From positions 1,536 through 65,535 of the forward strand of contig JBAWWL010000007.1 in NCBI GenBank assembly GCA_037146775.1: DNA of 64,000 nucleotides. The letters run 5' to 3'. The notes under the pieces were generated by a model that ran no database searches, had not been told where the DNA came from, and worked only from the letters and a program-made list of their open reading frames with translations. Shown here piece after piece: positions 9,043 to 62,011 of this stretch (the stretch's first letter is position 1; each line of letters begins with the position of its first letter). This stretch comes from Candidatus Omnitrophota bacterium (GTDB taxonomy: Bacteria; Omnitrophota; Gorgyraeia; Duberdicusellales; 4484-171). Both the position numbers and the translations under genes were made by a program.

Positions 9043-9074
9043 GCTTACCATTTTGAAAGGGGGGTGGTATAATT
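9043..9074 (+). promoter_or_regulatory. Sigma70-type promoter, extended -10, copy 2 of 3 (TTACCA-N17-TGGTATAAT)
   Basis: TCGCTTACCATTTTGAAAGGGGGGTGGTATAATTAAAAAC, about 120 nt upstream of the 9192 ORF. Confidence 0.45.
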
Positions 9075-9191
9075 AAAAACAAGTTTGATTTGGCATAAAA
9101 TAGTGTCAGCAGAAATTTTTATAGACACTGGAAATTAAATAGTGAGGAGCCAGGTTTTTAAACCAAAACCTTGGATGGTCGGTGAATTAAG

Positions 9192-9464: not shown

Positions 9465-9562
9465 TAAGTAGATATTCGTTATGGCCGTCAATGATGAGTT
9501 TTTAATCTAAGATTGTTGAAGTTTGCGGCCCCGGAAGGTGTTTTCTGCTAGTGAGAGGTAAA

Positions 9563-33654: not shown

Positions 33655-36600
33655 ATGAAAAACGATTCGTCAAAAATATCAAAGATGAAATTGCAGATCG
33701 AAGAGTGGAAGAAAAGACTCATAGATCTAACGCGAAGGAATCAGCTTGTTTTTTTTAATTCCACGAAAAAAAGCACTATTGAAATTAAACATCCTTCTTT
33801 CGAAGATGTGTTCAGTTCGCTATTCAATGAAAAGAAATTTAGTGTTTGGTTGCCACCAAAGGATGATGAAAATAATAAATTAAGTGACAGCGAAAAAGAG
33901 GATCTTTTTAATAGTAGCCCAGCGGACGATGATGAGTATAATTTAAGAGATAATGAGTTAGCTTTCGTTTTATCTGAGCGGAAGGAAACTGAACGTAGAA
34001 TAAAGAGCATTTATAGAAAAGCGTCCTCAGATTACCTTGAAAAAGGCATAAGAACGTCTATAGTTGCTTTTGGTTTACTATGGTGGAAAGAAAAGGATTC
34101 TCACGAAGAAGTATGCTCTCCTTTGTTGTTGTATTCAGTCGAGATATTGCAGGCCACTCCTGAAGAACCATATAAAATCCTTGGATCAGAAGAAGATGTT
34201 ATTTTAAATCCCGCAATTCAAGTCAAGATGAATTGGGATTTCAAAATTCAATTGCCCGAACCGGATTTTGATTCTGATGATTGGAATCTTGATGCATATT
34301 TATCTTCAATAGAAAAACTTGGCAAGCGGGACGGTTGGCGCGTTGAAAAGAGGATGTTTCTTGGAAACTTTTCTTTTCATAAGATAGCGATGTATCAGGA
34401 TCTTGCAGTTAATGCTTCAATAATGGAGCAACATCTGATAATAAAAGGGCTCGCAGAAGGATTTTTAGATGAGCGGCTTTGCGTAAATGATATCCCAAAT
34501 GAGAAAGAGCTCGATAATAATGCTGATTCGAAGAGGATGCTTTACATATTAGATGCAGATAGTAGTCAGTCGAAGGCCATTGAGTCTTCGATATGTGGGC
34601 ATAGCTTTGTCTTGAAAGGGCCTCCGGGTACAGGAAAAAGTCAAACTATTAGCAATATAATTGCCGAGTTTCTAGAGGAAGGTAAAACGGTTTTATTTGT
34701 CAGCGAAAAAATGGCGGCCTTGGAGGTTGTTTTTAATCGATTGAAACAGGCTCGATTAACCGATTATTGCCTTGAACTTCACAGCCACAAAGCCAATAAA
34801 AAAGAGGTTGTCAAAGAACTTAAGAGATGCCTAGACGAACAGCCGATCGCTAACAAGAAAGTTACTTCTCTTGAATTAGAAAAACTTCGGGCTCTTCGTA
34901 CTAGATTAAATGAGTATGTTCTTGAGCTACATTTTGTTAGAGATCCACTTGGGGAGAGCATGTATCAAGTGTTTGGAAAATTATCAAGGCTAGATAGAAT
35001 GACGCTTATTCCCATAAAACTTCCCGACGATAGTTTTTCCCCAATTTCATTTCAATCGATGAAAGATTTAATTTCAAGACTTCGGAATTGCTTCATTGTT
35101 ATTGAGGAGGGGCGAGTTTTCCCTTGGCGAGGATTTAAACCGCAAAGATTTACACATAGTTTACGAGCAGATCTTATTGATAAGCTTACAAAAATAAGGT
35201 CACAAATAAGTAAGTTGGATGGGCTTTTTAAGGATCATTCATCTATTTTAGGATTAGACTCTCCAGTTAGTCTTTCTGGATGTAAATGGATGCTTCAGAT
35301 GAGCAGAAAGTTAACCAATAATCCATCCCCGGTCAAGCTGTGGTTTTCCGAAATCGAGAGAAAGCAATTGTTATTAGAGGCACAGAAATATTGCGATTTA
35401 GACGAGCGTTACCAGCTATTAAGGAATGAAGTTCTTGGTGATTTTAACGAAACTTTCTTTGGCCTGACTGTTAGTATAAAAAATGATTTTCAATCAGTTT
35501 GGGGCGACCTAAGCGCCCTAATATCGAAAGATGCGGGCATGGACGCTCAGCTACTTGTTGTTCGAAAAGAACTAGAAGCATTTTCGGATAGCTCTAGGCA
35601 ATATTTAGAAGGTTATATACGGGATGTTCGAGAGATTAAAGAAGCTTTTGGCTTAACGATTCCAGAGAATTATTCGATAGAGCGTATCAAGCAATTAACA
35701 GAACTAGTTTCCCTCCTATTCGTAGAGAATAAGCCTGAGAAGGCGTGGTTTGACCCTGTGGCCCTCAACAGAGCGGTCAATATGATCAAGAAGCTCCGAG
35801 TTTATTGTGAAAAATACTCCCAGCTCACGACTGAAATAGCCTCAAAATATTACACTGGATTCCTAACGCTAGACACCGAACGGTTAATAAAAAACTTTGA
35901 GGGTAGATATAAAAGTATATTCAGATTTTTTATTCCCGGATATTATTTCGATATTAGTCGTATCAAGAAAATCAGCAAAACAAAAAGTTTTCTCGCCACG
36001 ATTGTCACCGATTTAAGGAACGTTAGAGAACTAAAAGAGCTTGAGAACACTTTTAATGTCGAGAGTCCGTCCATAAAAGAAGCCCTTGGGAATTATTTTA
36101 ATGGGTTTGATACAAATCTTGAAGCCACAGAGTTTGCAATTGAGACGGCGGATAAGATCATCCGTCTTGTTGGCGAGCTACCTTTACCCGTAGGCGTCTT
36201 AAATGCCGGGGCTTTTGGTGGAATTGCGCATCCAAATTTGAAAATCATTTCTAGCCGGCTTCATAATACATTAACTGTGTGGTTACGTGAACTTGAGAAA
36301 TTCGGAATAATTGTTTCAGACAAGTGTTTGATGGTAACAAAATTACCCCTTGTCGAAAGTTCCGTTGTTTCACTAAATCAGTATTTTTATGACTTATCTC
36401 TCGCTCTAAAGAATTTAAATATAGTTGTTAATGCAATTGAACAACCTAAACGAGTGGGGCATTTTAATTCATGTTCGGAAATATTTGAAAAATTGGATAG
36501 TCTTGCCCAAATCCGAGATTTTGAGAAAGATATTCAAGGAAGATCAGAAAAACTAAGTCAATCATTTGGTAATAAATTTCTTGGTCTACAAACAAATTGG

Positions 36601-39258
36601 CGAGAAATAGTGAATGCTTTAAATTGGACAAAAGAGTTTACTGGGATGATCGAAGGAGTTCCTCTTTCCGACGATTTTCTTGCCAACGTTATTTCGGGGA
36701 TACGGCCCAAAGAATCTGAAATATCAGAATTGGATTCCGAACGTCAGACGGCCGAAAACAGGATTAAAGAATTCGAAGAATTATTTAACGACAAAGAAGA
36801 TCAATTTCCTCCTGTTCGTCTCGAAAATCTCGATTTCGATCACATCACTATGGATCTAGATCAACTCATCAGTAGGATTGATGATCTTTCGTATTGGCTT
36901 GAATACATCAACATAGCCGGAGAATTACGGAAATACGGGCTATCATCTTTCATAGAAAAGATTGTTGCTATTCCACCCAACCCCGATCAATTAGGTGATA
37001 TTTTTGTTAAATCTTTTTACAATGCATGGGTGAACAAAGTTTCTGAACAAGTTCCGGTGCTGGGTGAGTTTAAGGGTATTAATCATGAAGATACGGTTAC
37101 TGAATTTAGGGCGCTTGACAAGAAATTAAATTCACTCTCATCTTCTTTAATTATTGAGAAATTAAACGAATCAAAAAGTGGCTTGTTGGATGGGGTGCGA
37201 GGCAGTGAGGTATCAGTATTGCGAGACCAATCAGCTCGTGTTCGTCGGCATTTTCCCTTGAGGGTGCTTTTTTCTCGTATTCCGCATTTATTGCTTAAAC
37301 TAAAACCTTGCCTACTTATGAGTCCTCTTTCCGTAAGTCATTTTATTGACCAAACGAACTACAAATTTGATCTTGTAATTTTCGATGAGGCTTCGCAAAT
37401 ATGTTCGGAAGACGCCGTAGGTGCGATTGCGCGAGGTAAACAATTAATTGTAGCTGGAGATAACAAACAATTACCTCCGACTAAGTTTTTTCAAGGAGAT
37501 TCGACTGACGAGGATGATATTGAGGAGTCTAATGAATCATTTGGAGTATATCAAAGCGTTTTAGATGATTGCGAGAGAATAGGATTGACGCCACAGCCTT
37601 TAATGTTGAAATGGCATTATCGAAGTAAGCACGAAGGTTTAATCGCATATTCGAATTTGCGATTTTATGAGAATAAGCTTGTTACATTTCCATGTGCAAA
37701 AGAAAAGCATGACGATTTAGGCATTAAGTTTATTTATGTAAGCGATGGTGTTTTTGATCGTGGAGGGAAAAGGAACAACTTAAAAGAAGCTGAAATAGTT
37801 GCGGATTTGGTTTTTGACCACCTCACTAAGTATGGTGACAGTAAAACATTGGGCGTTGCGACATTAAATCTGCCGCAGAAAGATGCTGTGCTGGATGCTA
37901 TAGAACAAAGGAGAAAAATTCATCCGGAGCTGGACAAATTTTTTCTCACTGATAGACTGTCAGGTTTCTTTGTGAAAAACCTTGAATCAGTACAAGGCGA
38001 TGAGCGCGATGTTATCATTCTGAGTCTCGGGTACGGGCGTGATTCTCAAGGTAGATTCACAATGAATTTCGGGCCAATTAATAAAGATGGTGGTGAAAAA
38101 CGCCTAAATGTTATTGTTACTCGAGCAAAAGAAAAGTTGATTTTAGTAAGCTCAATCAAGGCATCCGATTTTGATTTAAGCAATCTTAATACAGAGGGCG
38201 TTAGACACTTATATCGCTACTTGGACTATGCTGAGAGAGGCAAAGAGGCTCTTGAGCTACAAGATATTACCGATGGAGATGTCGACTCTCCGTTTGAGGA
38301 AGATGTGAAGAATGCAATCAGGGCGTTTGGATTTGACGCGGTTAGTCAAGTTGGTTGTAGTGGATTTAGAATTGATATTGGGGTCATTGATCCTGCTCAT
38401 CCCGGATGTTTCATCTTAGGCGTTGAATGTGATGGCGCCACATATCACTCTGCATTCACAGCTCGAGAGAGAGATAGAATTAGGCAAGAAATCTTAGAGA
38501 AGCTAGGATGGAAAATGCATAGAATTTGGTCGCCGGATTGGTTCTATAGAAAAGCAGAAGAAATCGCAAAATTGAAAGAAGTGATTGATAAGGTGCGGAC
38601 TAATGGTTATTGTTCAGGCGTATCACATAAAAGTCATGAGATAGAAATTCGTTATGATAAACGAGAACCAAATGATTTTAAGGAAAATTTTGTTGACGGG
38701 ATCGTTGAATACTCAATATACAAGCGGAGGAACACGTATCCATCGTATGAATTTAATCTTCCGGAAAGTTGCGAAAAACGAGCTGATATTCTTGTAGAAA
38801 TAGTAAGGCATGAAAGTCCAATCCATGTTGATTTAGTTTCAAGACGTCTTCTTTCGATCTGGGGTATACAGCGTATGGGTTCTGTAGTTGAAGACACGAT
38901 GGATAGAACGGTGAGATATTGTTTAAGAAAGGAATATATCTTCCGAAAAGGTAAATTCCTGTACTCAGATTCGTTATTTGTAGTTAATAATGTTCGAAAA
39001 CCGATTGAGGGCAAGCCTGAGACATTTCGAGACGCCGAGCTCATTTCCGAGGATGAAGTTGAGTTAGCCCTAACACTTTTCATTAAAAATGCAATGAGTA
39101 TCGATAAAGAGGCTCTTATTACTGAGACCGCAAGGCTCTTTGGCTGGGCAAGAAATGGATCAAAAGTGGAGTCTCTTATTGTCAAGGCTTTTGGTGAGCT
39201 TTTAAAGAAAGAACTAATCGTAACAAATAATAATTTAGTTTATCTAAAAACGAATTGA
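33655..39258 (+). CDS. 1867-aa DUF4011 / Upf1-like SF1 helicase (AAA_11-AAA_12) / REase-fold (DUF559-like) / DUF3320 protein
   Basis: N-terminal WKKRLIDLTRRNQLVFF (DUF4011-like). Walker A LKGPPGTGKSQT and motif II VIFDEASQ. Helicase C-terminal motifs (NVIVTRAKEKLILV). REase-like FRIDIGVIDP...GVECDGATYHS. C-terminal conserved tail. Confidence 0.75.
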   Translation: MKNDSSKISKMKLQIEEWKKRLIDLTRRNQLVFFNSTKKSTIEIKHPSFEDVFSSLFNEKKFSVWLPPKDDENNKLSDSEKEDLFNSSPADDDEYNLRDNELAFVLSERKETERRIKSIYRKASSDYLEKGIRTSIVAFGLLWWKEKDSHEEVCSPLLLYSVEILQATPEEPYKILGSEEDVILNPAIQVKMNWDFKIQLPEPDFDSDDWNLDAYLSSIEKLGKRDGWRVEKRMFLGNFSFHKIAMYQDLAVNASIMEQHLIIKGLAEGFLDERLCVNDIPNEKELDNNADSKRMLYILDADSSQSKAIESSICGHSFVLKGPPGTGKSQTISNIIAEFLEEGKTVLFVSEKMAALEVVFNRLKQARLTDYCLELHSHKANKKEVVKELKRCLDEQPIANKKVTSLELEKLRALRTRLNEYVLELHFVRDPLGESMYQVFGKLSRLDRMTLIPIKLPDDSFSPISFQSMKDLISRLRNCFIVIEEGRVFPWRGFKPQRFTHSLRADLIDKLTKIRSQISKLDGLFKDHSSILGLDSPVSLSGCKWMLQMSRKLTNNPSPVKLWFSEIERKQLLLEAQKYCDLDERYQLLRNEVLGDFNETFFGLTVSIKNDFQSVWGDLSALISKDAGMDAQLLVVRKELEAFSDSSRQYLEGYIRDVREIKEAFGLTIPENYSIERIKQLTELVSLLFVENKPEKAWFDPVALNRAVNMIKKLRVYCEKYSQLTTEIASKYYTGFLTLDTERLIKNFEGRYKSIFRFFIPGYYFDISRIKKISKTKSFLATIVTDLRNVRELKELENTFNVESPSIKEALGNYFNGFDTNLEATEFAIETADKIIRLVGELPLPVGVLNAGAFGGIAHPNLKIISSRLHNTLTVWLRELEKFGIIVSDKCLMVTKLPLVESSVVSLNQYFYDLSLALKNLNIVVNAIEQPKRVGHFNSCSEIFEKLDSLAQIRDFEKDIQGRSEKLSQSFGNKFLGLQTNWREIVNALNWTKEFTGMIEGVPLSDDFLANVISGIRPKESEISELDSERQTAENRIKEFEELFNDKEDQFPPVRLENLDFDHITMDLDQLISRIDDLSYWLEYINIAGELRKYGLSSFIEKIVAIPPNPDQLGDIFVKSFYNAWVNKVSEQVPVLGEFKGINHEDTVTEFRALDKKLNSLSSSLIIEKLNESKSGLLDGVRGSEVSVLRDQSARVRRHFPLRVLFSRIPHLLLKLKPCLLMSPLSVSHFIDQTNYKFDLVIFDEASQICSEDAVGAIARGKQLIVAGDNKQLPPTKFFQGDSTDEDDIEESNESFGVYQSVLDDCERIGLTPQPLMLKWHYRSKHEGLIAYSNLRFYENKLVTFPCAKEKHDDLGIKFIYVSDGVFDRGGKRNNLKEAEIVADLVFDHLTKYGDSKTLGVATLNLPQKDAVLDAIEQRRKIHPELDKFFLTDRLSGFFVKNLESVQGDERDVIILSLGYGRDSQGRFTMNFGPINKDGGEKRLNVIVTRAKEKLILVSSIKASDFDLSNLNTEGVRHLYRYLDYAERGKEALELQDITDGDVDSPFEEDVKNAIRAFGFDAVSQVGCSGFRIDIGVIDPAHPGCFILGVECDGATYHSAFTARERDRIRQEILEKLGWKMHRIWSPDWFYRKAEEIAKLKEVIDKVRTNGYCSGVSHKSHEIEIRYDKREPNDFKENFVDGIVEYSIYKRRNTYPSYEFNLPESCEKRADILVEIVRHESPIHVDLVSRRLLSIWGIQRMGSVVEDTMDRTVRYCLRKEYIFRKGKFLYSDSLFVVNNVRKPIEGKPETFRDAELISEDEVELALTLFIKNAMSIDKEALITETARLFGWARNGSKVESLIVKAFGELLKKELIVTNNNLVYLKTN

Positions 39259-39411
39259 TTGAAATTATTGGCGCCAGAAGCTGATTGCTCGAATAATATG
39301 GTTAATCAAAGCGCGGTTGCAGAATTTGAGAAACAAATAAATGATTTGGTTTATGGATACTATGGTTTAACGAAAAAAAATAGACTTACTGGAAAACTCG
39401 GCTGGAGATAA

Positions 39412-40029
39412 ATGAATCAAAGAGACATTAAAGAGTTATACTTCATAACCCCGATTGATAATATTCCATCGATATTCCAACATGGGATTATGTCGCATAA
39501 TAAAATTAGGGCAAGCAAGTTATCTCATAAGAGCGTTGCTCATGGAGAAGTCCAGAAGCGCCGGGAGGACAAAGTCATTCCCGGAGGAAAACGCAAGTTG
39601 CATAATTATGTGAATCTGTACTTTAACCCTCGAAATTCAATGATGTATAGTCGTAAAAACTTACATGAAGATCTTTGCGTTTTGGCTGTACATGCGGATG
39701 TTTTAACTCATCAAGGTATTATTATCGCGGATGGAAATGCTTCGAGCAACTATACTCGTTTTTTTGAAACATCCGAAGGCATTAAATCTTTGGATAAAGA
39801 TTCCGTTTTTACTGAAAACTGGTGGGACCCGGATCATTACGAGATGTGTCGAAAACGAAGTGCGGCTTGTGCCGAAGCCTTATTCCCCGATCAATTGCCA
39901 CCATCCAAAATTACAGGGATATATGTATCGAGCGAAGAGGCTCATGGGAAGGTGGCGTCAATTATTGCCGATATTCGTATCAATATACCAGTTATTATAA
40001 ATGGCAAAATGTTTTTTAAGGAGGCTTGA
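39412..40029 (+). CDS. darT: DarT-like DNA ADP-ribosyltransferase toxin (DUF4433)
   Basis: N-terminal ELYFITPIDNIPSIFQHGIMS matches the DarT/DUF4433 signature (YHFTHI-NL-SIL-GL). About 205 aa. Immediately followed by a macrodomain gene. Confidence 0.65.
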   Translation: MNQRDIKELYFITPIDNIPSIFQHGIMSHNKIRASKLSHKSVAHGEVQKRREDKVIPGGKRKLHNYVNLYFNPRNSMMYSRKNLHEDLCVLAVHADVLTHQGIIIADGNASSNYTRFFETSEGIKSLDKDSVFTENWWDPDHYEMCRKRSAACAEALFPDQLPPSKITGIYVSSEEAHGKVASIIADIRINIPVIINGKMFFKEA

Positions 40030-40030
40030 A

Positions 40031-41152
40031 ATGGTAAAGAATATTTTAATCGGGGATATTTTTAATTCGGAAACTCAGACATTGGTAAACACTGTCAATT
40101 GCGTCGGTATCATGGGTAAAGGAATCGCGGCTGAATTCAAGAAACGCTATCCCGAGATGTTTGATGATTATGTGGCACGTTGCCAAAAAGGCGAAGTCAA
40201 GCCGGGCGTTCCTTACCTATTCAAAATGCCTTCGCTTTTTGCTCCGCAGGTGATTAATTTTCCAACAAAAAGCGATTGGCGAGCGGCATCGCGGGTCGAG
40301 GATATAGAAAAGGGTCTCAAAATACTTATTTCGAAATATAAAGAATGGGGTATTGAGTCAATAGCGGTTCCCCCGTTAGGCTGTGGCAATGGTCAATTAC
40401 TTTGGGAAACCGTTGGCCCTCTGATTTACAAGTATCTCTCGAAGCTGGATATTTTGGTCAAAATTTATGCTCCATATGGCACACCGCCTGCACAGTTGAC
40501 CGAGAAGTTTCTCTCGCAAGAGTATAATTTGCGGGATGCTAAGTCAGGCGAGGCAATCCTTCAGAAACTGGAACCCGCTTGGGTCGCGTTGATTGAGATA
40601 GTTCATCGCATTGAAAAGCAGGCGTATCATATGCCTGTCGGCAGGACTATTTTTCAAAAGATTGCCTATGTTGCCACTGCATTAGGTATCCCTACCGGTT
40701 TGGCGCATGTTCGTGGATCATATGGGCCTTATTGCAAAGAGCTAAATGATGTTAAAAAACGATTATCGAATGATGGATTATTGCAGGAAGAAAAAAGCGG
40801 GTCTATGTTTCAGGTTATTCCGGGCCTCGCGTATGAGAAGAATCGTTTGAAATATCAGGATACTTTTCAAAAATGGGATAATATGATCGACAAGACGGTT
40901 GATCTTTTTCTGCGATTAGATACTAATAAGGCCGAAATTGTGGCAACCGTTCTTTTCGTTGAGCGCGAAATGAATAAAAACAATATGTCTGAGGATGATA
41001 TTTTGCAAGAAGTGATGAAGTGGAAACAGAAGCGCATTCCTCCAATTAATAAGAAAGAGGTCGCTCAAGCTATCCGCAATCTTGGTGTGTTGAAATGGTT
41101 TACGCTGAAGCCTTCGGCAGACTTGCCGGTTGAGGAAGATTGGGCAAATTAA
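40031..41152 (+). CDS. darG: DarG-like macrodomain antitoxin (N-terminal macro domain + C-terminal DarT-binding region)
   Basis: LVNTVNCVGIMGKGIAAEFKKRYPEMF matches the DarG/ADP-ribose-processing macro domain. AAGGAGG RBS inside the 3' end of darT. The listed start at 40001 is unlikely. Confidence 0.7.
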   Translation: MVKNILIGDIFNSETQTLVNTVNCVGIMGKGIAAEFKKRYPEMFDDYVARCQKGEVKPGVPYLFKMPSLFAPQVINFPTKSDWRAASRVEDIEKGLKILISKYKEWGIESIAVPPLGCGNGQLLWETVGPLIYKYLSKLDILVKIYAPYGTPPAQLTEKFLSQEYNLRDAKSGEAILQKLEPAWVALIEIVHRIEKQAYHMPVGRTIFQKIAYVATALGIPTGLAHVRGSYGPYCKELNDVKKRLSNDGLLQEEKSGSMFQVIPGLAYEKNRLKYQDTFQKWDNMIDKTVDLFLRLDTNKAEIVATVLFVEREMNKNNMSEDDILQEVMKWKQKRIPPINKKEVAQAIRNLGVLKWFTLKPSADLPVEEDWAN

Positions 41153-41158
41153 AAAATT

Positions 41159-41587
41159 ATGGATATAAAAAACGATAACCATGACTTTTTACTCAAAGAG
41201 ATTGATCTAATTCAAGATGTGATCAGGCGAATGGCTCATAATTCATTCTTGATCAAAGGATGGGCTGTTACTTTGATCGTTGGTTCTTTATTATTAAAAG
41301 GGACGATGCTTGAAGTTTATATTGCGGTGATTCCGCTGATTTCTTTTTGGATTCTGGACGCTTATTTTCTTAGGCAAGAACGTCTATATCGGAAACTTTA
41401 CGATTGGGTTATTAATAATCGGCACAAAACAAGCGAATATCTTTTTGATTTAAGCACGTCGCGATTCAAGGGCGCGGTGCAGTCAATTCCTCGAATTATG
41501 TTTTCGATTACTTTGGGCATCTTTTATGGTTCGATTGCAGTTTTATTGGCTATTTATATTGTCATGCTTTTGAAATTTCATGCATAA
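41159..41587 (+). CDS. Small 3-TM membrane protein, possible membrane effector
   Basis: Three hydrophobic helices; no catalytic motif. 7-nt gap from darG and 13-nt gap to the TIR gene. Confidence 0.45.
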   Translation: MDIKNDNHDFLLKEIDLIQDVIRRMAHNSFLIKGWAVTLIVGSLLLKGTMLEVYIAVIPLISFWILDAYFLRQERLYRKLYDWVINNRHKTSEYLFDLSTSRFKGAVQSIPRIMFSITLGIFYGSIAVLLAIYIVMLLKFHA

Positions 41588-41599
41588 GGAATTGATATT

Positions 41600-42181
41600 A
41601 TGGCTAAACAAGTATTTTTTAGCTTTCATTATGATGATGTAAAAACATTTCGTGCGAATGTTGTTAGGAACCACGGATTTACAAAGGAAGATGGTCAAGA
41701 AGCAGGATTTTTTGATGCCTCAATCTGGGAAGATGCGAAACTACATGGTGATATTTCTGTAAAAAGACTCATCAATTCGAATCTGGACAACACATCGGTT
41801 ACTTGTCTTTTAATTGGTACAGGAACGTGGAATAGGCGTTGGGTCAGATATGAGATATTGAAAAGCTATGATCGGGGCAACGCACTGTTTGGAGTTCATA
41901 TCAACAGCGTGACTGATAAAAATAGGCAGACGTTTCCTCAAGGACTAAATCCATTCGATTATTTAGGATTTATCGTTAGTGAAGACGGGAAGAAGCTTAC
42001 TTATCAAGAACACGATGGAACAAGTTGGAAAGTTTATCAAGACTTGCCACCTAAAATGACAAACTTTGACAGACAACATTGGAATAAAGGTTTTAAGCTA
42101 TCCAGCTGGGTTCCGTGTTACGACTGGACAAGTGGGGATGGATATAATAAATTTTCATCTTGGGTAGAGAGTGCCAAATAA
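41600..42181 (+). CDS. TIR-like domain protein (ThsB-like / DUF1863-type)
   Basis: N-terminus VFFSFHYDDVKTF. WVRYEI (Trp-x-x-x-Glu) region typical of bacterial TIR NADase domains. 193 aa. Confidence 0.55.
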   Translation: MAKQVFFSFHYDDVKTFRANVVRNHGFTKEDGQEAGFFDASIWEDAKLHGDISVKRLINSNLDNTSVTCLLIGTGTWNRRWVRYEILKSYDRGNALFGVHINSVTDKNRQTFPQGLNPFDYLGFIVSEDGKKLTYQEHDGTSWKVYQDLPPKMTNFDRQHWNKGFKLSSWVPCYDWTSGDGYNKFSSWVESAK

Positions 42182-42251
42182 ACCCTATGGCGTTGTGGTT
42201 CGAGCTGTAGGCTAACTTGGCGATACTCTCTAAAACTTGGAGGTTTGAACA

Positions 42252-42497
42252 ATGGGTAATCGAGCAGAAAATAATTTCAAAAAACGTTTCGGTGATCCTC
42301 CTCGGTTTAATGTTATATACCCGAAAAAACCTTTAGAAGGGTCTGAGCGGATATACCGCAATCAAAAAATCGCTGACGCGGTCGATAAAGTCTTAACCGG
42401 TATTTTAGGACGGAAGCCAACAAAAGACGAATTGATCGGACGCAAGCGTATAAATGAAGCGGAAATCCAAGCGTGCTTGGTCGGTAAAACGGAATAA
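42252..42497 (+). CDS. Small hypothetical protein
   Basis: ORF within the operon; no motif. Confidence 0.3.
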   Translation: MGNRAENNFKKRFGDPPRFNVIYPKKPLEGSERIYRNQKIADAVDKVLTGILGRKPTKDELIGRKRINEAEIQACLVGKTE

Positions 42498-42561
42498 GCG
42501 CAGATTACGCTATATTTAGAGCGAGACTTTTTTATAGCCATTATTAAGTTAGGAGTTATTC

Positions 42562-43542
42562 GTGGCATCAATGGGCGATTTAATTGATGAATTGAAACGT
42601 GTCGATTTTGAAAGACCGATTGTCTTTATCAGTTACGCTGGCGAGGAGCTTGCGTTAGCGGATTTTATTAGGGACATCATAAGTCGTCTCACTGAATTTA
42701 AGGTTGAGGCGTTTGTTGCTAAAAGAGATATCCCGCCCGGAGATAATCCACTAAAAACAATGATGGAAGAAAAACTTAAGAATGCAAAAGCGATTATTCC
42801 TATATGTTCTGTCAAGTCGAAGATGTCATCATGGGTCTGGTGGGAATCGGCCGCTGTTTGGGCTAAGGACAAAAAGGTTTATCCCCTGTTTACCAATATT
42901 TCAGCAAGTGATTTTGGTGCGCCTTTAACGCTGGTAAGCCAAGGGAAAGAATATTTTATTAGATCGGAGTTTATTGAGACAGTGAGAATGGTTTGTGAGG
43001 ATGTCGGGACCCCGGTTGTCGATAAGGATTTAACCAAAGAGGAATGGGATGAATATGAGAAGCTAAAAACTGAGTATTCTAAGCCGGAAACTTCAGCAAA
43101 AGTTACAGCGGATTATAAGAAACTTGAAATGACTCAGGATTTACACAAATATTCTTTTGTTTTTGAAATCGAGAATAGGAATCAGAAAAGATTTGATGAT
43201 GTTGATGTAGAGCTTTATTTCCCGGTAGACTACATTGAGGAGAAAAAATGGGAATATCCGCATTTAAGATCTTCTACTTCACATGACAAACCGGGTTACT
43301 TATGCTTAACATTTTCTTTTTCCGGGTTGCCAGAAACTGCGAAAAAACAATTCATCAGCAGTTTATTGCCCGGTAAAAAGCTAAAGGTTTTTGGTGAAGA
43401 TGGAATGACCAAACTTCATTATTACATGGATCATGATCGTTGGGACAAAAGGTTTAAGTATGATGTGCAGTGGAAAGTTTATATCAATGGCGGAGCCCCT
43501 CAAGAAGGCAGTATCCCATTAAATTCAATTCAGTATTTTTAA
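42562..43542 (+). CDS. TIR-domain protein with about 170-aa C-terminal domain of unknown function
   Basis: IVFISYAGEELALADFIRDII...SSWVWWESAAVW matches the bacterial TIR pattern (FISY..D, SxWCxxE-like). Confidence 0.6.
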   Translation: MASMGDLIDELKRVDFERPIVFISYAGEELALADFIRDIISRLTEFKVEAFVAKRDIPPGDNPLKTMMEEKLKNAKAIIPICSVKSKMSSWVWWESAAVWAKDKKVYPLFTNISASDFGAPLTLVSQGKEYFIRSEFIETVRMVCEDVGTPVVDKDLTKEEWDEYEKLKTEYSKPETSAKVTADYKKLEMTQDLHKYSFVFEIENRNQKRFDDVDVELYFPVDYIEEKKWEYPHLRSSTSHDKPGYLCLTFSFSGLPETAKKQFISSLLPGKKLKVFGEDGMTKLHYYMDHDRWDKRFKYDVQWKVYINGGAPQEGSIPLNSIQYF

Positions 43543-43781
43543 GGATGGTTGGTCTGTAATCGCGTTACAAAGCTTTCTTGTTCTTTGGGACTTTTAAGCA
43601 TCTGCCGTAGCTGGCGTTCAGTTATCAGTCGTTTGGGCATGGGATCGCCCAGCGCTTCAACGGCTTCGACCAGCGAGGGGTTAAGGTCGAGAAGGCTCGT
43701 ATATTGCCAGATTCGGACCCGGGAGATGCCTACCTTGCGAGCAAGGTCACTTTCGTTCTTGGCTTGGCCGGATTCAATCAT
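43539..43781 (-). CDS. Small HTH DNA-binding protein next to the island junction (candidate excisionase/RDF or ParB-like fragment)
   Basis: ESDLARKVGISRVRIWQY helix-turn-helix-like segment. Location adjacent to the 13-bp repeat. Confidence 0.35.
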   Translation of the reverse strand: MIESGQAKNESDLARKVGISRVRIWQYTSLLDLNPSLVEAVEALGDPMPKRLITERQLRQMLKSPKEQESFVTRLQTNHP

Positions 43782-43964
43782 GCGGGCGTATTCCTTGGCT
43801 CGAAAGATGGGGTTGCGGTAGGTACGGACGGGTTTTGGGGGTATTCTTCGGGCCTGTTCAGGCGTCTGGCCTTCTCGGATGACTGAAATGAGCCGGTGAT
43901 TCCACTTTTCCTTCTCGGTAATGAAGGCGGTGAACTGCCATAAAAGCCCGCAGTCAGACGACTG

Positions 43965-44289: not shown

Positions 44290-45894
44290 TTACGCGGTAG
44301 GTTTCTGAATAAGTGATCGCCACATATCGTATTGCTTTCCCCAGTCTGGCTCTCTGGCAATAATGTTGGCTTTATACTCGGGTATTTCAGAGATAGTTTC
44401 ATTAGGCCCAAGAAGGATTTCTTCCTGTATCCTTGGTGAAATATAGAGCAGCTCCATAACAAGATGTAGCTTAATGGCCGACATATTAAGCCAAATAGCA
44501 AGCAGTTTAATGTTTTCAGCTTGACCAGAGTCAAGCAGCTGTTGTGCTTGGTGGGCAAGAATCAGCAGTTGGCGCAGTTTTGGTTCTTTCAAGATGCCAT
44601 CTTTAGGGTCATGTGTAATAGTATGGTTTACTTCTTTTAACTCCCCGCTATATTCTTGAGAAATCCCGTCAGAGAATGCAACCATCAGTTTTTTAGTTAC
44701 CCCGTCATAATCAACGCGTTTAATATGGCTGACTAAGATAGATTTTTGTTCCTGGGCAGTAATACTTTTCCAGTTTTCTTTAAAGCTAGCCGCGTCAGCT
44801 CGCGTAAACAAACATTCCGCCACGGCATTCTCAATTTCAAGAGCGTTAACTGATTTTGTCGCGCAGCCGTCGTAGCCGTATTTCTGCGCATGGAGGCATA
44901 CGTAATATCGGTAGTAGATTTTCTGTTCCTTGAAAGTGCTTGTGCCAAACATTGGCGTATTGCAATGCTTACAGAAGAGAAGCTTGGTTAGTGGGTTTAC
45001 GACGTTCTTTCCGCGGGTTAGTTCCTGATAATTACGGTTTTTCTTTAGAGCCTCTTGTGCCTTATTATAAGTTTCCTCGTCAATTATGGCTTCCTGTTGT
45101 CCGGGGTAAAATTCGCCCGCATATTTGACTTTACCGATATAAAGAGGATTCAGAATAATACTGTTAATTGAATTATTCTGAAATATGTTACCGCCGTTTG
45201 TTTTACCTTTTTTATTGGTATGGACTTTACTTCGTAACCCTCTTTCATTTAGTTCTCGCGCCAGCATTCTGAGCGAATATCCTTTCAGATAAAGCTCATA
45301 AATGGTTTTAATTATTTGAGCCTCAGCAGGATTAATAACAAGTTTTCCGGCTTCTTTGTCGAAGTCATACCCTAATGGAGGCCTGCCGCCTAGCCATTTA
45401 CCTTTCTTCCTGGCCGCTCCCATTTTATCTTTTGTGCGCTCTGAAATAATCTCACGTTCAAACTGGGCAAAGGAGAGCAGGATGTTAAGTGTAAGTCTGC
45501 CCATAGAGGTATTGGTATTAAAGGCTTGAGTTACTGATACAAAAGTTACCTTATTTTGATCAAAAAGCTCAAGAAGCTGGGAAAAGTCAATAAGAGAGCG
45601 GGAGAGCCGGTCAACTTTGTAAACTACAACGCAGCTAATTTTTCCAGCCCTAATATCCTCAATAAGCTTTTGAAGCGCCGGCCTGTCAGTATTTGCTCCT
45701 GTATATCCACCGTCGTCGTAACGGTCTTCCAGGGCGATCCAGCCTTCATTCTTTTGGCTGTTAATATAGCTAATCGCCGATTCTCGTTGGGCGTCCAGCG
45801 AGGTAAAGTCCTGGTCCAAGCCTTCAGAAGTTGATTTACGTGTATAGATAGCGCAATAAAGGTTAGGTTTATCTTTAATATTGTCGTTGTTCAT
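44290..45894 (-). CDS. Large serine recombinase (island 2)
   Basis: LYCAIYTRKSTSEGLDQD catalytic-Ser resolvase domain. VYKVDRLSRS. Recombinase and zinc-ribbon domains (CKHCNTPMFG). The start may be 45894 (MNNDN) or 45921. Confidence 0.85.
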   Translation of the reverse strand: MNNDNIKDKPNLYCAIYTRKSTSEGLDQDFTSLDAQRESAISYINSQKNEGWIALEDRYDDGGYTGANTDRPALQKLIEDIRAGKISCVVVYKVDRLSRSLIDFSQLLELFDQNKVTFVSVTQAFNTNTSMGRLTLNILLSFAQFEREIISERTKDKMGAARKKGKWLGGRPPLGYDFDKEAGKLVINPAEAQIIKTIYELYLKGYSLRMLARELNERGLRSKVHTNKKGKTNGGNIFQNNSINSIILNPLYIGKVKYAGEFYPGQQEAIIDEETYNKAQEALKKNRNYQELTRGKNVVNPLTKLLFCKHCNTPMFGTSTFKEQKIYYRYYVCLHAQKYGYDGCATKSVNALEIENAVAECLFTRADAASFKENWKSITAQEQKSILVSHIKRVDYDGVTKKLMVAFSDGISQEYSGELKEVNHTITHDPKDGILKEPKLRQLLILAHQAQQLLDSGQAENIKLLAIWLNMSAIKLHLVMELLYISPRIQEEILLGPNETISEIPEYKANIIAREPDWGKQYDMWRSLIQKPTA

Positions 45895-46358
45895 AGTCTG
45901 AAAAATTGGTAACCGTTCCAATGGTTACCTCCAATTAGTGAGGCTACACTGGAAAGAGTTTTATATATCTTCCCATTATATTCAAAACCATTTTCTAAAA
46001 CTTTCACCATGATTTTTTGCCCTTTATAATTCTTGGTAATTATGCTTCCTGGGATAGGCAGGCGCCGGTCATTTTTACGAGAAGGCCTTTTTCCGGGAGT
46101 ATTCTCGCTTTCTGGCCGTAATAATGGATTGTTTACAGGTTCATATTTTTGTATTAATTCGTCTAATTTGCTTTTAACTTTCTCTGAAAGTCCGCCAAAT
46201 TCTAATTCCTGGTTACGATAGGCGATTTTACGCCATAAATGTACCTTATTGTTGGAAGGTCTCTTGTTATCCCCAAAAGCTTCCTTGTATTTCTTCTGTA
46301 ATTCATACAGGGGTACGCTTTTTAGCTCCGTTATCTTGGTTACCGCATTTTCGCTCAT
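45891..46358 (-). CDS. DUF2924-like recombinase-associated protein
   Basis: LYELQKKYKEAFGDNKRPSNNKVHLWRKIAYRNQ resembles the DUF2924 motif (LWKRIAWRLQ) that commonly precedes large serine recombinases. Overlaps the recombinase start. Confidence 0.5.
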   Translation of the reverse strand: MSENAVTKITELKSVPLYELQKKYKEAFGDNKRPSNNKVHLWRKIAYRNQELEFGGLSEKVKSKLDELIQKYEPVNNPLLRPESENTPGKRPSRKNDRRLPIPGSIITKNYKGQKIMVKVLENGFEYNGKIYKTLSSVASLIGGNHWNGYQFFRL

Positions 46359-46866: not shown

Positions 46867-49800
46867 ATGAATACCGATCTCACATTTTTTACAAACGAAA
46901 AAGGAGCAACCCTGCTAGACAGGTTCAAAGTAACCCTTGAAAACAATACAAAGTTTTTTGATGTCCTAGTGGGTTATTTTAGAACGAGTGCATTTTTTAG
47001 TTTATATAAGTCGCTTGAAAAAGTTGAAAAAATTAGAATTTTGGTTGGGATTAATGTTGATAAACAAACACAAAATCTATTAGGGCAAGCCAAGGAAGGG
47101 CAGCTTACACTTAAGTTTTCGCATAAAGAAGTAAAAGACGCTTTTGTCGAAGAAGTTAGCAAGGAAATGGAGGAGTCCGAAGATAACTCAGAAATAGAAT
47201 TAGGTGTCTATAAATTTATCGAATTTATAAAATCTGGTAAGCTAGAAATCAGAGCCCATCCTTCGCAGTCTATTCACGCCAAGCTCTATATAATCCGTAA
47301 AGATTCTACAAAAAGTGAAGATTATGGTAGGGTTATAACTGGTTCGAGTAATTTTACCTTCTCTGGTCTCCAGGAAAATATCGAATTTAATGTAGAATTA
47401 AAAGATAGCCGGGATGTGGAATATGCTTTAAAAAAATTTGATACACTTTGGGAACAATCAGTGCCTATCTCTAATGAATACATCGAAGCAATCAATGATA
47501 AGACTTGGCTTAATGACGCAATTAAGCCTTATGAACTTTACCTAAAATTCCTTTACGAATATTTTAAAGATAAAATAAATGAAGATATGGATTCCATTTA
47601 TAAGGATAGAAGATTCTTGCCTGAAGGCTACATGGAGCTTGAGTATCAAGACGAAGCCGTAAAAGATGCTTTAGCTAAATTAGGTGATTACGGTGGAGTT
47701 TTCTTAGCAGACGTTGTCGGCCTAGGAAAAACTTATATTTCAGCTTTACTTGCCCAGCAGCTCGACGGTTATACTCTTATAATTTGTCCACCGGTACTAA
47801 AAAACTATTGGCATGATACCTTCCGAGATTTTGGAGTAAGGGGATTTGAAGTAGAATCTTTGGCCTTGAGCAAAATTGATAGAATAATTGAGGAAGGTCC
47901 TGAAAAGTACAAGAATATTTTCATCGATGAGGCACATCGCTTCCGTAATGAGACAAACCAGACTTATGCAAAGTTAAAACAGCTTTGTTGGGGGAAGCGA
48001 GTTATTTTAGTTTCTGCAACACCATTGAATAATACTCCATTTGATATCCTAAGTCAAATAAAGCTATTTCAAAAGGAACATAATAGTACGGTTCCTAATG
48101 TTCGGGATCTAGGAAGATTCTTCGCTGGACTACACGAGAGATTAAAATCAACTGATCGTAAGAATCTCAAGGAATATTTAGCGATAGTAAAGGAGAATTC
48201 ACAAGCAATTAGAGAGAATGTGCTTAAATATTTGATGGTTAGAAGAACCCGTTCAGAAGTTCTGAAATACTTCAAGAAAGATCTTGATAAGAGAAAGATT
48301 AAGTTTCCTTCAGTGGCTGAGCCCAAGAGGGTCTACTATGAATTTGATAATAATCTAGAAAATGTATTTATTCAAACAATCAAACTCATTAAGACATTTA
48401 AGTATTCCAGGTATATGCCATTCAATTACTTAAAGAATCCAGATGCGGAAGACAGACAGGAACAAGTTTCTCAACGTAACCTTGGTCGTTTCATGAAGAT
48501 ACTATTAGTGAAGCGTCTAGAAAGCAGTTTTTATGCTTTCAACATGACTCTGGACAGGTTCATTAATTCTTACAAGGATTTTATCGATATGCTAAATAAA
48601 GGGAATATTTATATAAGCAAGAAATATAGCGATAAAATTTACGAAGCAATAGGTAATGACACAGAGGATAGTCTAGATGAACTAGTTAATCAGGAGAAAA
48701 TTAAAAAATATAAGAAAGGTGATTTTGCAAATGATTTTCAGAAAGATTTAGAAAGCGATTATAAAATATTATTGGAAATAAAAAAAATGTGGAACAGTGT
48801 AAAAACAGATCCTAAGATAATAAAATTTAAGGCTATACTTAATAATGATAAGATTCTAAAGAATAATAAAATAATTATCTTTACAGAATCTAAGGAAACA
48901 GCAGAATATCTAGATAGAAATTTAAGAGATGTCTTTGGCGATAAGATCATATCTTATTCAAGCAAGTCTGGCTCTACTGTTCGTGATGAAATCACTGCAA
49001 ACTACGACCCTAATTCTAAGATCCACAAGGACAACATAAGAATACTAATTACTACTGATGTACTGGCAGAGGGTGTTAATATGCATCGTTCCAATGTGGT
49101 TATAAATTATGATATTCCTTGGAACCCTACCAAAGTCTTGCAAAGAGTGGGACGTGTTAACAGGATTGGGACTATTCATGACAATATATATGTTTATAAC
49201 TTTTTTCCTACCGTTTATTCAAATAGTGAAATTAAGCTAGAGGAGGCGGCTATTGCAAAAATTCAAGCATTTCATCATACTCTCGGAGAAGATGCGCAAT
49301 ACTTAACCGACGGGGAAGAAATCAGCTCCCATGAGTTGTTTACTAGGCTTAATTCTAAAAAGGTACTCGAAAATGGCGAAGAAGAAGAAAGGGATTCAGA
49401 ACTTCAATATTTATCTGAGATACGTAATGTCCGCGATGCTAACCAACAGTTATATGAAAGAATTAAAAAACTTCCTAAGAAATCACGGAGTGCTAAGTTT
49501 TATAAAGGGGAGAAAGAATCAGGGGTAACATTTTTTAGAAAAGGAAAATTACGTAAAATGTTTATTGCTGACTCTCAAAGTGCAAGAGAATTAAACTTCT
49601 TTGCCGCGGCTCGGTTATTAAAAGCGGAAGCCAGTGATATCAGGGAAAAAATTGCAGCGAGTTTTTATGAATTCATTGTTAAGAACAAAAAAGCATTCAG
49701 CTCGGCCACTGCTGAAGAGGTGAGACAATTTGGGCAACTGGGAGCCGGTAGTAATGAGAAAAAGCTTATTCGATACACAAAGGCAATCAGAAAAACTGCT

Positions 49801-50082
49801 GGATTCACTGATCGAGACGAAGAATATCTAAATAAAATAATAACGATTTTAGAAGATGGAACGCTAGCTAAACAGACAACCAAGGTTTTAATCAAAGAGA
49901 TTGATAAAGAGACTAAAAAAGAAATAAAAAAAGACAAAGTCCCCTTTAATATTTTAAAGAAATTTAAAGAAAAAATTCCAGATACATTTTTTGCCGAATC
50001 TATTTTGAGCAGCCCACATCAGGTTTCTTCCCCGAAGGAAGTTATTCTCTCCGAACTTTTAATTCCCGAAAGAAAAACTTAA
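46867..50082 (+). CDS. PLD-family nuclease (HxK) fused to SNF2-family helicase (DISARM DrmC+DrmD-like fusion)
   Basis: N-terminal HAKLYIIRK...GSSNFT (PLD HKD motif). SNF2 motifs: GLGKTYISA, DEAHRFRN, SATPLNNT, helicase-C ITTDVLAEGVNMHRSNVVINYDIPWNPTKVLQRVGRVNRIG. Confidence 0.8.
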   Translation: MNTDLTFFTNEKGATLLDRFKVTLENNTKFFDVLVGYFRTSAFFSLYKSLEKVEKIRILVGINVDKQTQNLLGQAKEGQLTLKFSHKEVKDAFVEEVSKEMEESEDNSEIELGVYKFIEFIKSGKLEIRAHPSQSIHAKLYIIRKDSTKSEDYGRVITGSSNFTFSGLQENIEFNVELKDSRDVEYALKKFDTLWEQSVPISNEYIEAINDKTWLNDAIKPYELYLKFLYEYFKDKINEDMDSIYKDRRFLPEGYMELEYQDEAVKDALAKLGDYGGVFLADVVGLGKTYISALLAQQLDGYTLIICPPVLKNYWHDTFRDFGVRGFEVESLALSKIDRIIEEGPEKYKNIFIDEAHRFRNETNQTYAKLKQLCWGKRVILVSATPLNNTPFDILSQIKLFQKEHNSTVPNVRDLGRFFAGLHERLKSTDRKNLKEYLAIVKENSQAIRENVLKYLMVRRTRSEVLKYFKKDLDKRKIKFPSVAEPKRVYYEFDNNLENVFIQTIKLIKTFKYSRYMPFNYLKNPDAEDRQEQVSQRNLGRFMKILLVKRLESSFYAFNMTLDRFINSYKDFIDMLNKGNIYISKKYSDKIYEAIGNDTEDSLDELVNQEKIKKYKKGDFANDFQKDLESDYKILLEIKKMWNSVKTDPKIIKFKAILNNDKILKNNKIIIFTESKETAEYLDRNLRDVFGDKIISYSSKSGSTVRDEITANYDPNSKIHKDNIRILITTDVLAEGVNMHRSNVVINYDIPWNPTKVLQRVGRVNRIGTIHDNIYVYNFFPTVYSNSEIKLEEAAIAKIQAFHHTLGEDAQYLTDGEEISSHELFTRLNSKKVLENGEEEERDSELQYLSEIRNVRDANQQLYERIKKLPKKSRSAKFYKGEKESGVTFFRKGKLRKMFIADSQSARELNFFAAARLLKAEASDIREKIAASFYEFIVKNKKAFSSATAEEVRQFGQLGAGSNEKKLIRYTKAIRKTAGFTDRDEEYLNKIITILEDGTLAKQTTKVLIKEIDKETKKEIKKDKVPFNILKKFKEKIPDTFFAESILSSPHQVSSPKEVILSELLIPERKT

Positions 50083-53000: not shown

Positions 53001-53321
53001 TTAAGTTTACTTAATTCGAAATTATTCCAATATCTATACGCTTATATCTCGCAAGAAAGCTATGGGAGGACATTCGCACAAGTCAAAACTACATATATAA
53101 AGAAGCTGCCCTTTAAAAAAATATCCGAGGACGAGCAAATCTCTTTTGTTAAGCTTGTTGATAGGATTCTTTCTGTCACGAAGGATGAAGACTACTTAAC
53201 TAATTCTGTTAAGCAAGCAAAAGTCAAAGAATACGAACACCAGATTAACCAGATGGTCTATAAACTTTACGGACTTACCAAAGAAGAAATTGAAGTCGTT
53301 GAAAGTTTTAATAAAAAATAA
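50082..53321 (+). CDS. Large N6-adenine DNA methyltransferase, Eco57I/PglX/DrmMI-like
   Basis: GAYYTPREIVHYM (motif X/I region). CDPACGSGAFL (FxGxG SAM site). IMANPPYG (NPPY catalytic motif). 1079 aa. Start overlaps the upstream stop (TAATG). Confidence 0.8.
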   Translation: MKNIIKQSLEGSFNLDNFSLLVKNIFNKIDINPQEITVFNGFEEHIKSLTFLGEYCDSQDKNLDVLAIELIGDTKIERARSFQRNIVAKYLKNNTKDSSLVAFYSQGNPDWRLSFVKLDYKLTDKGPRAEVGTPAKRYSFLVGETEPSHTAQAQLLPILEKQKENPSISEIEEVFSVEKVTKEFYEKYLDLFKRLSRNLERNKEFEDIANKEQIDIENFTKKLIGQIVFLYFLQKKGWLGVPRKKSWGEGDKFFLRTLFDKAEKEKGNFYNDYLEILFYDTLNNPRKDKDEPEYSTYFDCKIPFLNGGLFGPDYDWKNTTVKLSNEIFEDIISTFDIYNFTVKEDDPLEKEIAVDPEMLGKVFENLLPENLRKGRGAYYTPREIVHYMCQESLINHLSTETKVDIEKVRKLVNLSDSGISKNEAESIDKAISSIKVCDPACGSGAFLVGMLHEIVNTRHNLTNLLNLEGKDLKERGEYNLKKQAIENCIYGVDIDPGAVDIAKLRLWLSLVVDYDEEVIKPLPNLDYRIMCGNSLLEEFEGVRFYDGSNGNGEKSLFKDERKEKIEELRRKTKEYFNIFDDEEKHNKSKEINKLKDWFIRTTLEKRRKKITLQRKKIEANVNMFNSESQKEYFVNQKHIFISEAKINEVLQNLHNPQKARPFFIWKLEFMDVFEEKGGFDVIMANPPYGIIFKDDLKEEYEGKYNTFLRNNDIYVAFIERGIDLIQNNGMITYITPNTYQNGDYFIKLRNFMISNLKIFEILDFKNIPVFDDPTVFVSIFNAQKNNSGSSIIPLGIVISYKERMERVLSLIRIDKGDKNLFFKPQNQIIQKFIKDCSIEEFDKVFYIKDVGFNYWTVGKGKKRDGNSIGDRIFYAGKRLSESDIPFLKGRNIDRFFIQEPDNYLRHNYKDFLNSKFDVFRFSKEFLEISPKIIYRQTSADIKATIDHGKNYLDKTVHLIVLRDINLKINLKYVLSLLNSKLFQYLYAYISQESYGRTFAQVKTTYIKKLPFKKISEDEQISFVKLVDRILSVTKDEDYLTNSVKQAKVKEYEHQINQMVYKLYGLTKEEIEVVESFNKK

Positions 53322-53335
53322 CTTAAGAAATTATA

Positions 53336-54265: not shown

Positions 54266-54266
54266 A

Positions 54267-54809: not shown

Positions 54810-54817
54810 CATATATG

Positions 54818-56743: not shown

Positions 56744-56762
56744 CTAACAAAGGATCGAATTT

Positions 56763-62003: not shown

Positions 62004-62011
62004 GGTTAATT

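Follow-up and report, generated by a model that had tools for sequence, protein, structure and literature searches.

The six genes at positions 39412-43542 of the DNA analysed here, a window of 64,000 nucleotides from contig JBAWWL010000007.1 of a Candidatus Omnitrophota bacterium, likely form three self-contained two-gene anti-phage modules that were serially inserted in a defence island beside a serine recombinase gene, and do not form a composite system. The first module is a DarTG pair, the second combines a membrane protein with three predicted transmembrane (TM) segments and a ThsB-type TIR protein, and the third comprises a small open reading frame (ORF) of 81 amino acids (aa) and a second TIR protein of 326 aa. 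An earlier note, made from the sequence, had considered a functional DarTG-Thoeris composite or, alternatively, two stacked systems. The composite is contradicted by the gene order in related loci and by the DNA homology, which stops at the module borders, whereas the stacking was seen correctly, with three modules and not two.

Among the matches listed, we sampled 80 genomic loci in which a TM-protein homologue is encoded and 42 metagenomic loci whose DarG is 47-90% identical to that of the window. When the former were searched by tblastn with the window proteins and with hidden Markov models built from 41 DarT and 41 DarG sequences, neither DarT nor DarG was found in any of the 80 loci, 59 of which have at least 2 kb of upstream sequence. 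In the reverse direction, the TM protein, ThsB, the 81-aa ORF and the second TIR protein were found in none of the 42 DarG-relative loci, and varied other genes follow darG in the 24 loci that have at least 1.2 kb downstream.

The DNA homology breaks exactly at the module borders (handles such as L096 denote individual loci). The segment from 39341 or 39423 to 41159 matches L091, L092 and L094 at 82-84% nucleotide identity, and this DarTG block ends at 41156-41159. The next segment, 41159-42182, runs from the start codon of the TM gene to the stop codon of the ThsB gene and matches L082 at 91.5%. The block of the second TIR gene restarts at 42550, where positions 42550-43541 match L083/L084 at 79%, and positions 43574-43948 match L096 at 79.5%.

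The locus L096 is itself informative. At its positions 9004-10405, a Pycsar pair (PycC 4e-26, PycTM 5e-23) is located 40 nt after a DarG that is 89% identical to ours, and before the helix-turn-helix (HTH) gene that ends the cluster in the window. The alignment of L096 with the window indicates a clear cassette swap, with Pycsar on one side and the type V Thoeris and TIR pairs on the other. In L102, DarG is followed by two unknown genes and a serine recombinase homologous to that of the window. Since the Pycsar pair of L096 and the other genes of L102 occupy the same place, the position after darG is a cargo slot for different cassettes. The nearest copy of the TM/ThsB pair (92% and 93% aa identity) follows a GmrSD gene and two methyltransferase genes at a distance of 28 nt; given that the cassette sits so near to an unrelated gene, the tight packing seems to stem from the insertion of cassettes and not from the pairing found in the window. 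The locus illustrates island assembly cleanly, with two-gene cassettes lying between the same flanks and breakpoints at start and stop codons. Because complete cassettes slot in with such breakpoints, tight spacing alone is not readable as functional fusion.

Table 1. Coordinates of the cluster and of its neighbours in the window.
Feature	Position	Strand	Product	Evidence
darT	39412-40029	+	205 aa	Pfam/PADLOC DarT profiles
darG	40031-41152	+	373 aa, ATG start	macrodomain and C-terminal DarG domain
TM protein (ThsF-like, PDC-M50A)	41159-41587	+	142 aa	PADLOC profile, three hydrophobic stretches
ThsB TIR protein	41600-42181	+	193 aa	PADLOC and Pfam profiles, PDB match
Small basic ORF	42252-42497	+	81 aa	conserved homologues
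Second TIR protein	42562-43542	+	326 aa from GTG; 323 aa from ATG 42571	Pfam TIR_2
Hhe/ProA/PDC-S37-type helicase	33655-39258	+	1867 aa, separate single-gene defence protein	PADLOC PDC-S37 1383 bits, Hhe 1.4e-170
ParB-like HTH gene, end of cargo slot	43539-43781	-	80 aa	weak Pfam HTH_ParB 7e-4; nucleotide match to L096
Large serine recombinase	44290-45921	-	mobility module	Pfam Resolvase, Recombinase, Zn_ribbon_recom
DUF2924 gene	45891-46358	-	mobility module	Pfam DUF2924

All six ORFs of the cluster lie on the same strand (Table 1), and the gene calls of the source contig are identical. Profile searches bear out the earlier domain calls for DarT, the DarG macrodomain, the ThsB-like TIR and the second TIR. 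The genes are separated by 1, 6, 12, 70 and 64 nt, the last gap being 73 nt if the second TIR protein starts at its ATG. The tight spacing had been recognised before, although the four larger gaps, given then as 7, 13, 71 and 65 nt, were each counted one too high. The ribosome-binding site of darG (AAGGAGG) is embedded in the final codons of darT, and the darG ATG follows 1 nt past the darT stop codon; the mechanical ORF list has darG starting earlier, at 40001. The 81-aa ORF has a GGAGG motif 8 nt upstream of its ATG. When the cluster was scanned for consensus promoters and terminators, the counts did not exceed those of shuffled sequence, and a convincing intergenic terminator was not found.

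By its profiles and gene order, the first module is a canonical DarTG. DarT covers the full Pfam PF14487 profile (positions 1-201, 2.3e-46, 158.5 bits against a cut-off of 22.5) and matches the PADLOC DarT profile (2.3e-44). Its NCBIfam toxin_DarT score of 132 bits is below the equivalog cut-off of 150, and we therefore regard it as a divergent member of the family. The best solved relatives are a DarT-macro fusion (7OMU, 6e-26), followed by the Thermus DarT (7OMV). The arginine pair aligned with Thermus DarT is part of a KRRE motif (R50/R51; VQKRRED in the query, IQERRNR in 7OMV). Schuller et al., in 2021, reportedly numbered the catalytic residues of Thermus DarT as R51 and E160. As for the glutamate, E155 in the AEALF motif resembles QAEFLV, but at this point the HMMER alignment is offset, and the Glu seems to be missing from the deposited chains, so E155 is a candidate only. 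DarG matches the PADLOC DarG profile (1.4e-89, residues 6-351), NCBIfam antitoxin_DarG (297.5 bits, over the cut-off of 250, profile positions 4-338) and Pfam Macro (2.5e-19). The solved DarG macrodomains 5M3I (4e-37) and 5M31 (2e-33) align with its macrodomain, in which the lysine of the INFPTK motif, K80, is kept. The two genes are adjacent in 37 of the 42 related loci, and the remaining loci are contig ends. The order of DarT and macrodomain DarG, K80 and the DarT arginine motif are shared with the DarTG systems of T. aquaticus, M. tuberculosis and E. coli, from which the window pair differs solely in its divergent DarT and its uncultured Omnitrophota-type host. The role of DarTG as an anti-phage toxin-antitoxin system was described by LeRoux et al. 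2022, as cited in PMC13069673.

A separate observation concerns the toxin gene. In L095-L102, DarG is 86-89% identical at the aa level to the window DarG, while the adjacent DarT is merely 39-47% identical; the DNA homology of these loci begins at window position 40039, just within darG, whereas that of L091, L092 and L094 begins at or before the darT start codon. On these comparisons, the toxin seems to have been exchanged against a conserved antitoxin in L095-L102. Such an exchange would be odd if the C-terminal domain of DarG has to fit its DarT.

The second module consists of the TM protein and ThsB. The TM protein matches PADLOC PDC-M50A (1.5e-44), and its Kyte-Doolittle profile contains three hydrophobic stretches (residues ~29-47, 52-70 and 113-139), in agreement with the three TM segments called from the sequence. 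The AlphaFold2 (AF2) monomer is all-helical with three long helices, at a pLDDT (predicted local distance difference test score) of 62. No Pfam or NCBIfam family matches the 142-aa protein. A SLATT profile, proposed earlier as a check, had no match, and we rejected SLATT or another known effector domain for this protein, the hits being weak compositional matches alone (DUF4395, RPN7 and one DUF4231 at 0.04). The TM family has 4337 cluster representatives at 50% clustering, in bacteria and archaea. A TIR ORF lies within 1.5 kb of the TM homologue in 47 of the 80 genomic loci (38 of the 60 with adequate flanks), and 12 of these 47 carry two TIR ORFs. ThsB matches PADLOC PDC-M50B (2.6e-56) and ThsB1 (3.6e-53) as well as Pfam ThsB_TIR (7.9e-19, 68.4 bits). 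It is 57% identical over 191 aa, its full length, to ThsB of B. cereus MSX-D12 (PDB 6LHY/9B7D, E 2.6e-65), and the catalytic glutamate E85 (WVRYE) is conserved. The matches to PDC-M50A and PDC-M50B mean that the pair is already catalogued as a candidate two-gene system; a literature search for PDC-M50 found no paper.

Type V Thoeris is defined in a recent preprint as ThsB with ThsF, an effector with three TM helices, for which the authors use the annotation DUF2270 (Yirmiya et al., bioRxiv December 2025, doi 10.64898/2025.12.03.692087). The same preprint showed signalling by 3' cyclic ADP-ribose (3'cADPR) in the Bacillus type V system and modelled a homo-heptameric ThsF channel in which positively charged pockets lie between the protomers; its effector labels are representative-based and, by the authors' own statement, noisy. 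In its Table S1, our ThsB is 88% identical over 112 aa to the TIR domain IMG 2627819578, labelled 'DUF2270 - Type V', the comparison being one of TIR domains. The TIR protein of the Klebsiella plasmid CP024543 (L142:2913-3776) is identical to entry 2683723276 of that table, which bears the same label, and the gene next to it on the upstream side encodes a PDC-M50A protein (3.7e-32) with 31% identity to the TM protein of the window. Plasmids were searched with our TM protein and also with the validated type V ThsB from B. thuringiensis. The two sets of hits are alike in kind, each consisting mainly of about 40 Klebsiella and 36 Escherichia records, and in Priestia CP023318, Klebsiella AP022022 and C. 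botulinum CP063819 both queries match neighbouring positions. In the annotation of Klebsiella CP024543 and E. coli CP098957, a TIR gene lies directly downstream of the TM homologue.

The Pfam family DUF2270 (PF10028) was also searched for. It matches neither the window protein, nor its 22 close and 81 diverse relatives, nor the homologues on the Klebsiella, E. coli and Priestia plasmids, with E limits of up to 1-10. Since PF10028 matches none of the more than 100 members tested, Pfam-reliant annotation would miss the type V effector, and a by-product of this work is that DUF2270-dependent pipelines miss the widespread ThsF family found here. The inspected plasmid TM homologues are mostly hypothetical proteins in the PGAP annotation. 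The TM/TIR pair is thus named as type V Thoeris in the sense of the preprint authors, as far as profiles and labels tell, with the Pfam family not matching. The Thoeris-like nature proposed in the earlier note is borne out by the PADLOC PDC-M50 and type V labels, and the module is not new, as it corresponds to PADLOC PDC-M50 and to the published type V Thoeris.

The likeness to type V Thoeris extends to several features. Both are two-gene systems of a TIR protein and an effector with three TM helices, and the TM protein of the window belongs to the effector family that flanks TIRs labelled type V in Table S1. The ThsB of the window closely resembles an enzyme known to make 3'cADPR. The gene order is a difference, since the effector comes first, as it does on the Klebsiella, E. 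coli and Priestia plasmids. The validated type V systems, moreover, are those of Bacillus and employ another ThsB subtype than that of the window, for whose pair the signal and the toxicity are predicted. Type I Thoeris of B. cereus MSX-D12 (SIR2-SLOG ThsA and ThsB, 6LHY) has its ThsB glutamate at the same position, E85, but our cluster lacks a SIR2-SLOG ThsA, the partner being the 142-aa membrane protein; in profile searches, neither SIR2 nor SLOG was detected among the six proteins. A type II effector would have Macro and TM parts, and here the sole Macro domain is in the full-length DarG, which has no TM helices, and the TM protein has none. Type I and type II Thoeris were therefore rejected.

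Further observations concern the TM family. Its members are 46-68% identical across bacterial and archaeal phyla, which is unusual for a defence gene, while for the adjacent ThsB the identity is 33-47% in the majority of these loci (L002-L081). Within 1.5 kb of 33 of the 80 TM homologues, a TIR gene could not be detected; some members of the family may therefore act outside Thoeris or with a partner encoded at a distance. In the Beggiatoa/Thiomargarita-type loci, which belong to large sulfur bacteria, namely L070, L073, L075, L077 and L081, the TM gene is located directly upstream of a GspG-like pseudopilin gene. The Rhodococcus ruber plasmid NZ_CP129903 (L144:2033-2923) encodes a HIT-annotated protein that joins an N-terminal HIT domain to a C-terminal PDC-M50A membrane domain (6.5e-21) and adjoins a TIR gene, indicating that the ThsF membrane module is also fused to a HIT hydrolase-type Thoeris effector. 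The HIT-type effector is type XI in the preprint (doi 10.64898/2025.12.03.692087).

The third module pairs the 81-aa ORF with the second TIR protein. The ORF has 14 homologues with 63-95% identity, ten of them exactly 81 aa and nearly all of that length, which argues for a real conserved gene; no profile of Pfam, PADLOC or NCBIfam matches it. The second TIR protein matches Pfam TIR_2 (4.3e-12) in its N-terminal part only (TIR at about 18-125) and ThsB_TIR at just 4e-4, and PADLOC yields just a weak bSEFIR match (1e-6). In the AF2 model (mean pLDDT 82.6), the C-terminal beta-rich domain exceeds 90. Foldseek against the PDB places its TIR domain nearest to SPARTA TIR-APAZ and BtpA, and the C-terminus, which the earlier note called a novel domain, matches generic beta-sandwiches. 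The glutamate of the WWESA motif is present. The NCBI annotation of a metagenome-assembled Candidatus Omnitrophota genome includes a protein identical to this TIR protein.

The homologues of the second TIR protein, about 100, are in many cases solitary in unrelated contexts, some of them housekeeping; solitary copies were found in six other contexts. In L145-L147, the 81-aa ORF (86%) and the TIR protein (83%) form a pair whose spacer is again 64 nt; Fic, DUF4236 and transposase genes are their neighbours there, and neither DarTG nor ThsF occurs near the pair in these loci. A C-terminal remnant of the 81-aa ORF lies upstream of the TIR homologue in L083/L084. Judged from this distribution, the pair is an independent, uncharacterised module. 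The TIR fold as modelled and the often-solitary homologues resemble those of effector-type TIRs, such as SPARTA TIR-APAZ and single-protein defences like SpbK. Unlike SPARTA, the second TIR protein ends in a beta-sandwich without a specific match and is paired with the 81-aa protein in some genomes; no prokaryotic Argonaute gene was found near it in the window or in nine homologue contexts, and APAZ is absent. The family was not found among the part of the preprint's Table S1 that was searched. The pair, an uncharacterised candidate TIR module, is a by-product of this analysis; as a novelty, a two-gene TIR defence module not described before would be more modest and likelier than a DarTG-Thoeris hybrid.

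Side observations on this family are as follows. In L085/L086 (6858-8981), a 378-aa SIR2-like protein (PADLOC SIR2 2.8e-11) ends 6 nt before a 78%-identical TIR homologue, and the family may therefore also be paired with SIR2. About half of the homologues (e.g. P0122, P0125, P0134 and P0161) have about 436 aa with an extra conserved N-terminal portion of about 110 aa, the window copy being the short form. The idea that the 81-aa ORF is a split-off N-terminal domain belonging to these longer forms was rejected, since the lengths add up but sequence similarity is absent. The second TIR of the Priestia TM+TIR+TIR locus was likewise rejected as a homologue of the 326-aa protein, as it has no similarity and a different domain order.

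The proposed mechanism follows the characterised systems. Key catalytic residues appear conserved in the alignments, the assignment of the DarT glutamate being provisional. By analogy, DarT would ADP-ribosylate thymidines of single-stranded DNA, the DarG macrodomain would reverse this modification, the C-terminal domain of DarG would also restrain DarT, and phage infection would free DarT. ThsB would sense infection and convert NAD+ to a cyclic ADP-ribose isomer, most likely 3'cADPR, given its identity to the B. cereus enzyme that makes this compound. As in the published Bacillus type V system, oligomeric ThsF would then bind the signal and breach the membrane, so that infection is aborted. 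Our best guess for the third module is a sensor-effector TIR NADase, as weakly suggested by the effector-type TIR fold and the solitary homologues; the beta-sandwich might bind the trigger, and the 81-aa protein might be a regulator or inhibitor. The short gaps probably allow read-through transcription, and the modules would be functionally independent of one another.

Several points weigh against three independent modules or against their assignment. Many of the contigs in the sampled loci are short. The gaps of 1-70 nt without a detectable intergenic terminator may mean that the six genes form one transcript, and for the same reasons co-regulation or synergy is conceivable. The TM+TIR loci with two TIR ORFs provide a precedent for a second TIR feeding one effector. 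The AF2 monomer of the TM protein is of low confidence, so the channel architecture stays predicted. Moreover, the assignment to type V relies on preprint labelling and PADLOC matches, not on the Pfam DUF2270 family.

Among the alternatives, the one that survives best, though still unlikely, is a co-operonic synergy, in which independent modules are co-transcribed and protect better together than the sum of their separate effects. Besides the tight spacing and the lack of a convincing internal terminator, it can draw on Liu-DS6, an operon combining Pycsar with type IV Thoeris, with measured synergy and no cross-activation (PMC13069673), and on L096, where a Pycsar pair with its TM effector closely follows a near relative of our DarG. 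The Liu-DS6 pairing, however, recurs in 107 of 149 Pycsar homologues, whereas the pairing in the window was seen once and in none of the 122 related loci, and the same Thoeris V cassette also stands just after the unrelated GmrSD gene.

Another possibility, distinctly less probable, would be a two-sensor type V Thoeris, in which the 326-aa TIR protein is a second ThsB for other phages that feeds ThsF and the 81-aa protein has an accessory role. Thoeris loci with several TIR genes are common, locus L140 on a Priestia plasmid has the order TM, TIR, TIR, and the catalytic glutamate is present in the 326-aa protein. Yet its family is found in none of the 80 TM loci, apart from one 29% match in the TIR domain only, and both the 81-aa/TIR pair and the solitary homologues occur without ThsF. 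Its TIR domain is like that of NAD-depleting SPARTA effectors, and it matches TIR_2 (4e-12) far better than ThsB_TIR (4e-4).

Still more doubtful is a true DarTG-Thoeris hybrid, in which one transcript would be accompanied by NAD/ADP-ribose cross-talk, with the second TIR or ThsB feeding ThsF and DarG tuning the signal; nothing ties the DarG macrodomain to the Thoeris signal. If the hybrid were real, its recent assembly would explain why it is not yet seen elsewhere. The least credible is an integrated composite, in which the DarG macrodomain senses or degrades a TIR-derived ADP-ribose signal or DarT activity triggers ThsB: macrodomains generally bind ADP-ribose, the type II Thoeris effector binds His-ADPR via a Macro domain and the gap between darG and the TM gene is 6 nt, but co-occurrence is absent both ways, a recombination breakpoint falls exactly between these two genes, DarG is a full-length, above-threshold equivalog with a DarT-binding C-terminal domain rather than a modified sensor, and DarTG and Thoeris V are each a complete, known stand-alone system.

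Three serially inserted, independent modules therefore remain the preferred reading. Liu-DS6 and DarHTG are precedents for packed independent modules and for DarTG gaining neighbours, and in the window, too, a helicase gene lies directly upstream of darT. Both precedents are recurrent and experimentally required, whereas the combination in the window is unique among the 122 related loci. DarHTG is a published variant of DarTG that requires a helicase of a different family: DarH is UvrD-like, while the window helicase is of the Hhe/ProA-type with DUF4011, and the window DarG is a macrodomain protein and not the DarG3 glycohydrolase. The discovery value of the locus is small, as DarTG is well characterised and the TM/TIR pair is catalogued and described.

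The window from 33.6 to 64 kb is a defence island that contains the helicase gene, the three modules, the HTH gene, the recombinase and DUF2924 genes, DISARM-like genes, restriction-modification genes and NERD-UvrD helicases. The upstream helicase scores 1263 bits against NCBIfam ProA and 858 bits against Hhe, both under the equivalog cut-offs. A helicase of the Hhe/DUF4011 type lies upstream of DarTG in the window, in L092 (50% aa identity) and in L096 (32%), and downstream in L094; this recurrence may reflect a shared island backbone only. We rejected this helicase as a DarHTG-type partner, because an Hhe-like gene is near DarTG in 3 of the 42 loci and the family differs from DarH.

Downstream of the mobility module, positions 46867-63697 hold a DISARM-like set with a PLD+SNF2 DrmD-like protein and a type IIG/DrmMI-like methyltransferase, together with a type II methyltransferase and a small restriction endonuclease-like ORF, a NERD-UvrD helicase and a second NERD helicase. 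A 1746-aa protein of the DISARM-like set combines matches to DrmA (2.7e-160) and DrmB (1.1e-43). Between the helicase gene and darT lies a spacer of 153 nt (39259-39411), whose in-frame reading contains ...AEFEKQINDLVYGYYGLTKKN..., which we take to resemble the conserved C-terminal tail of type IIG/BREX-type methyltransferases. The spacer may be what is left of a deleted gene, and a scar from the turnover of cassettes.

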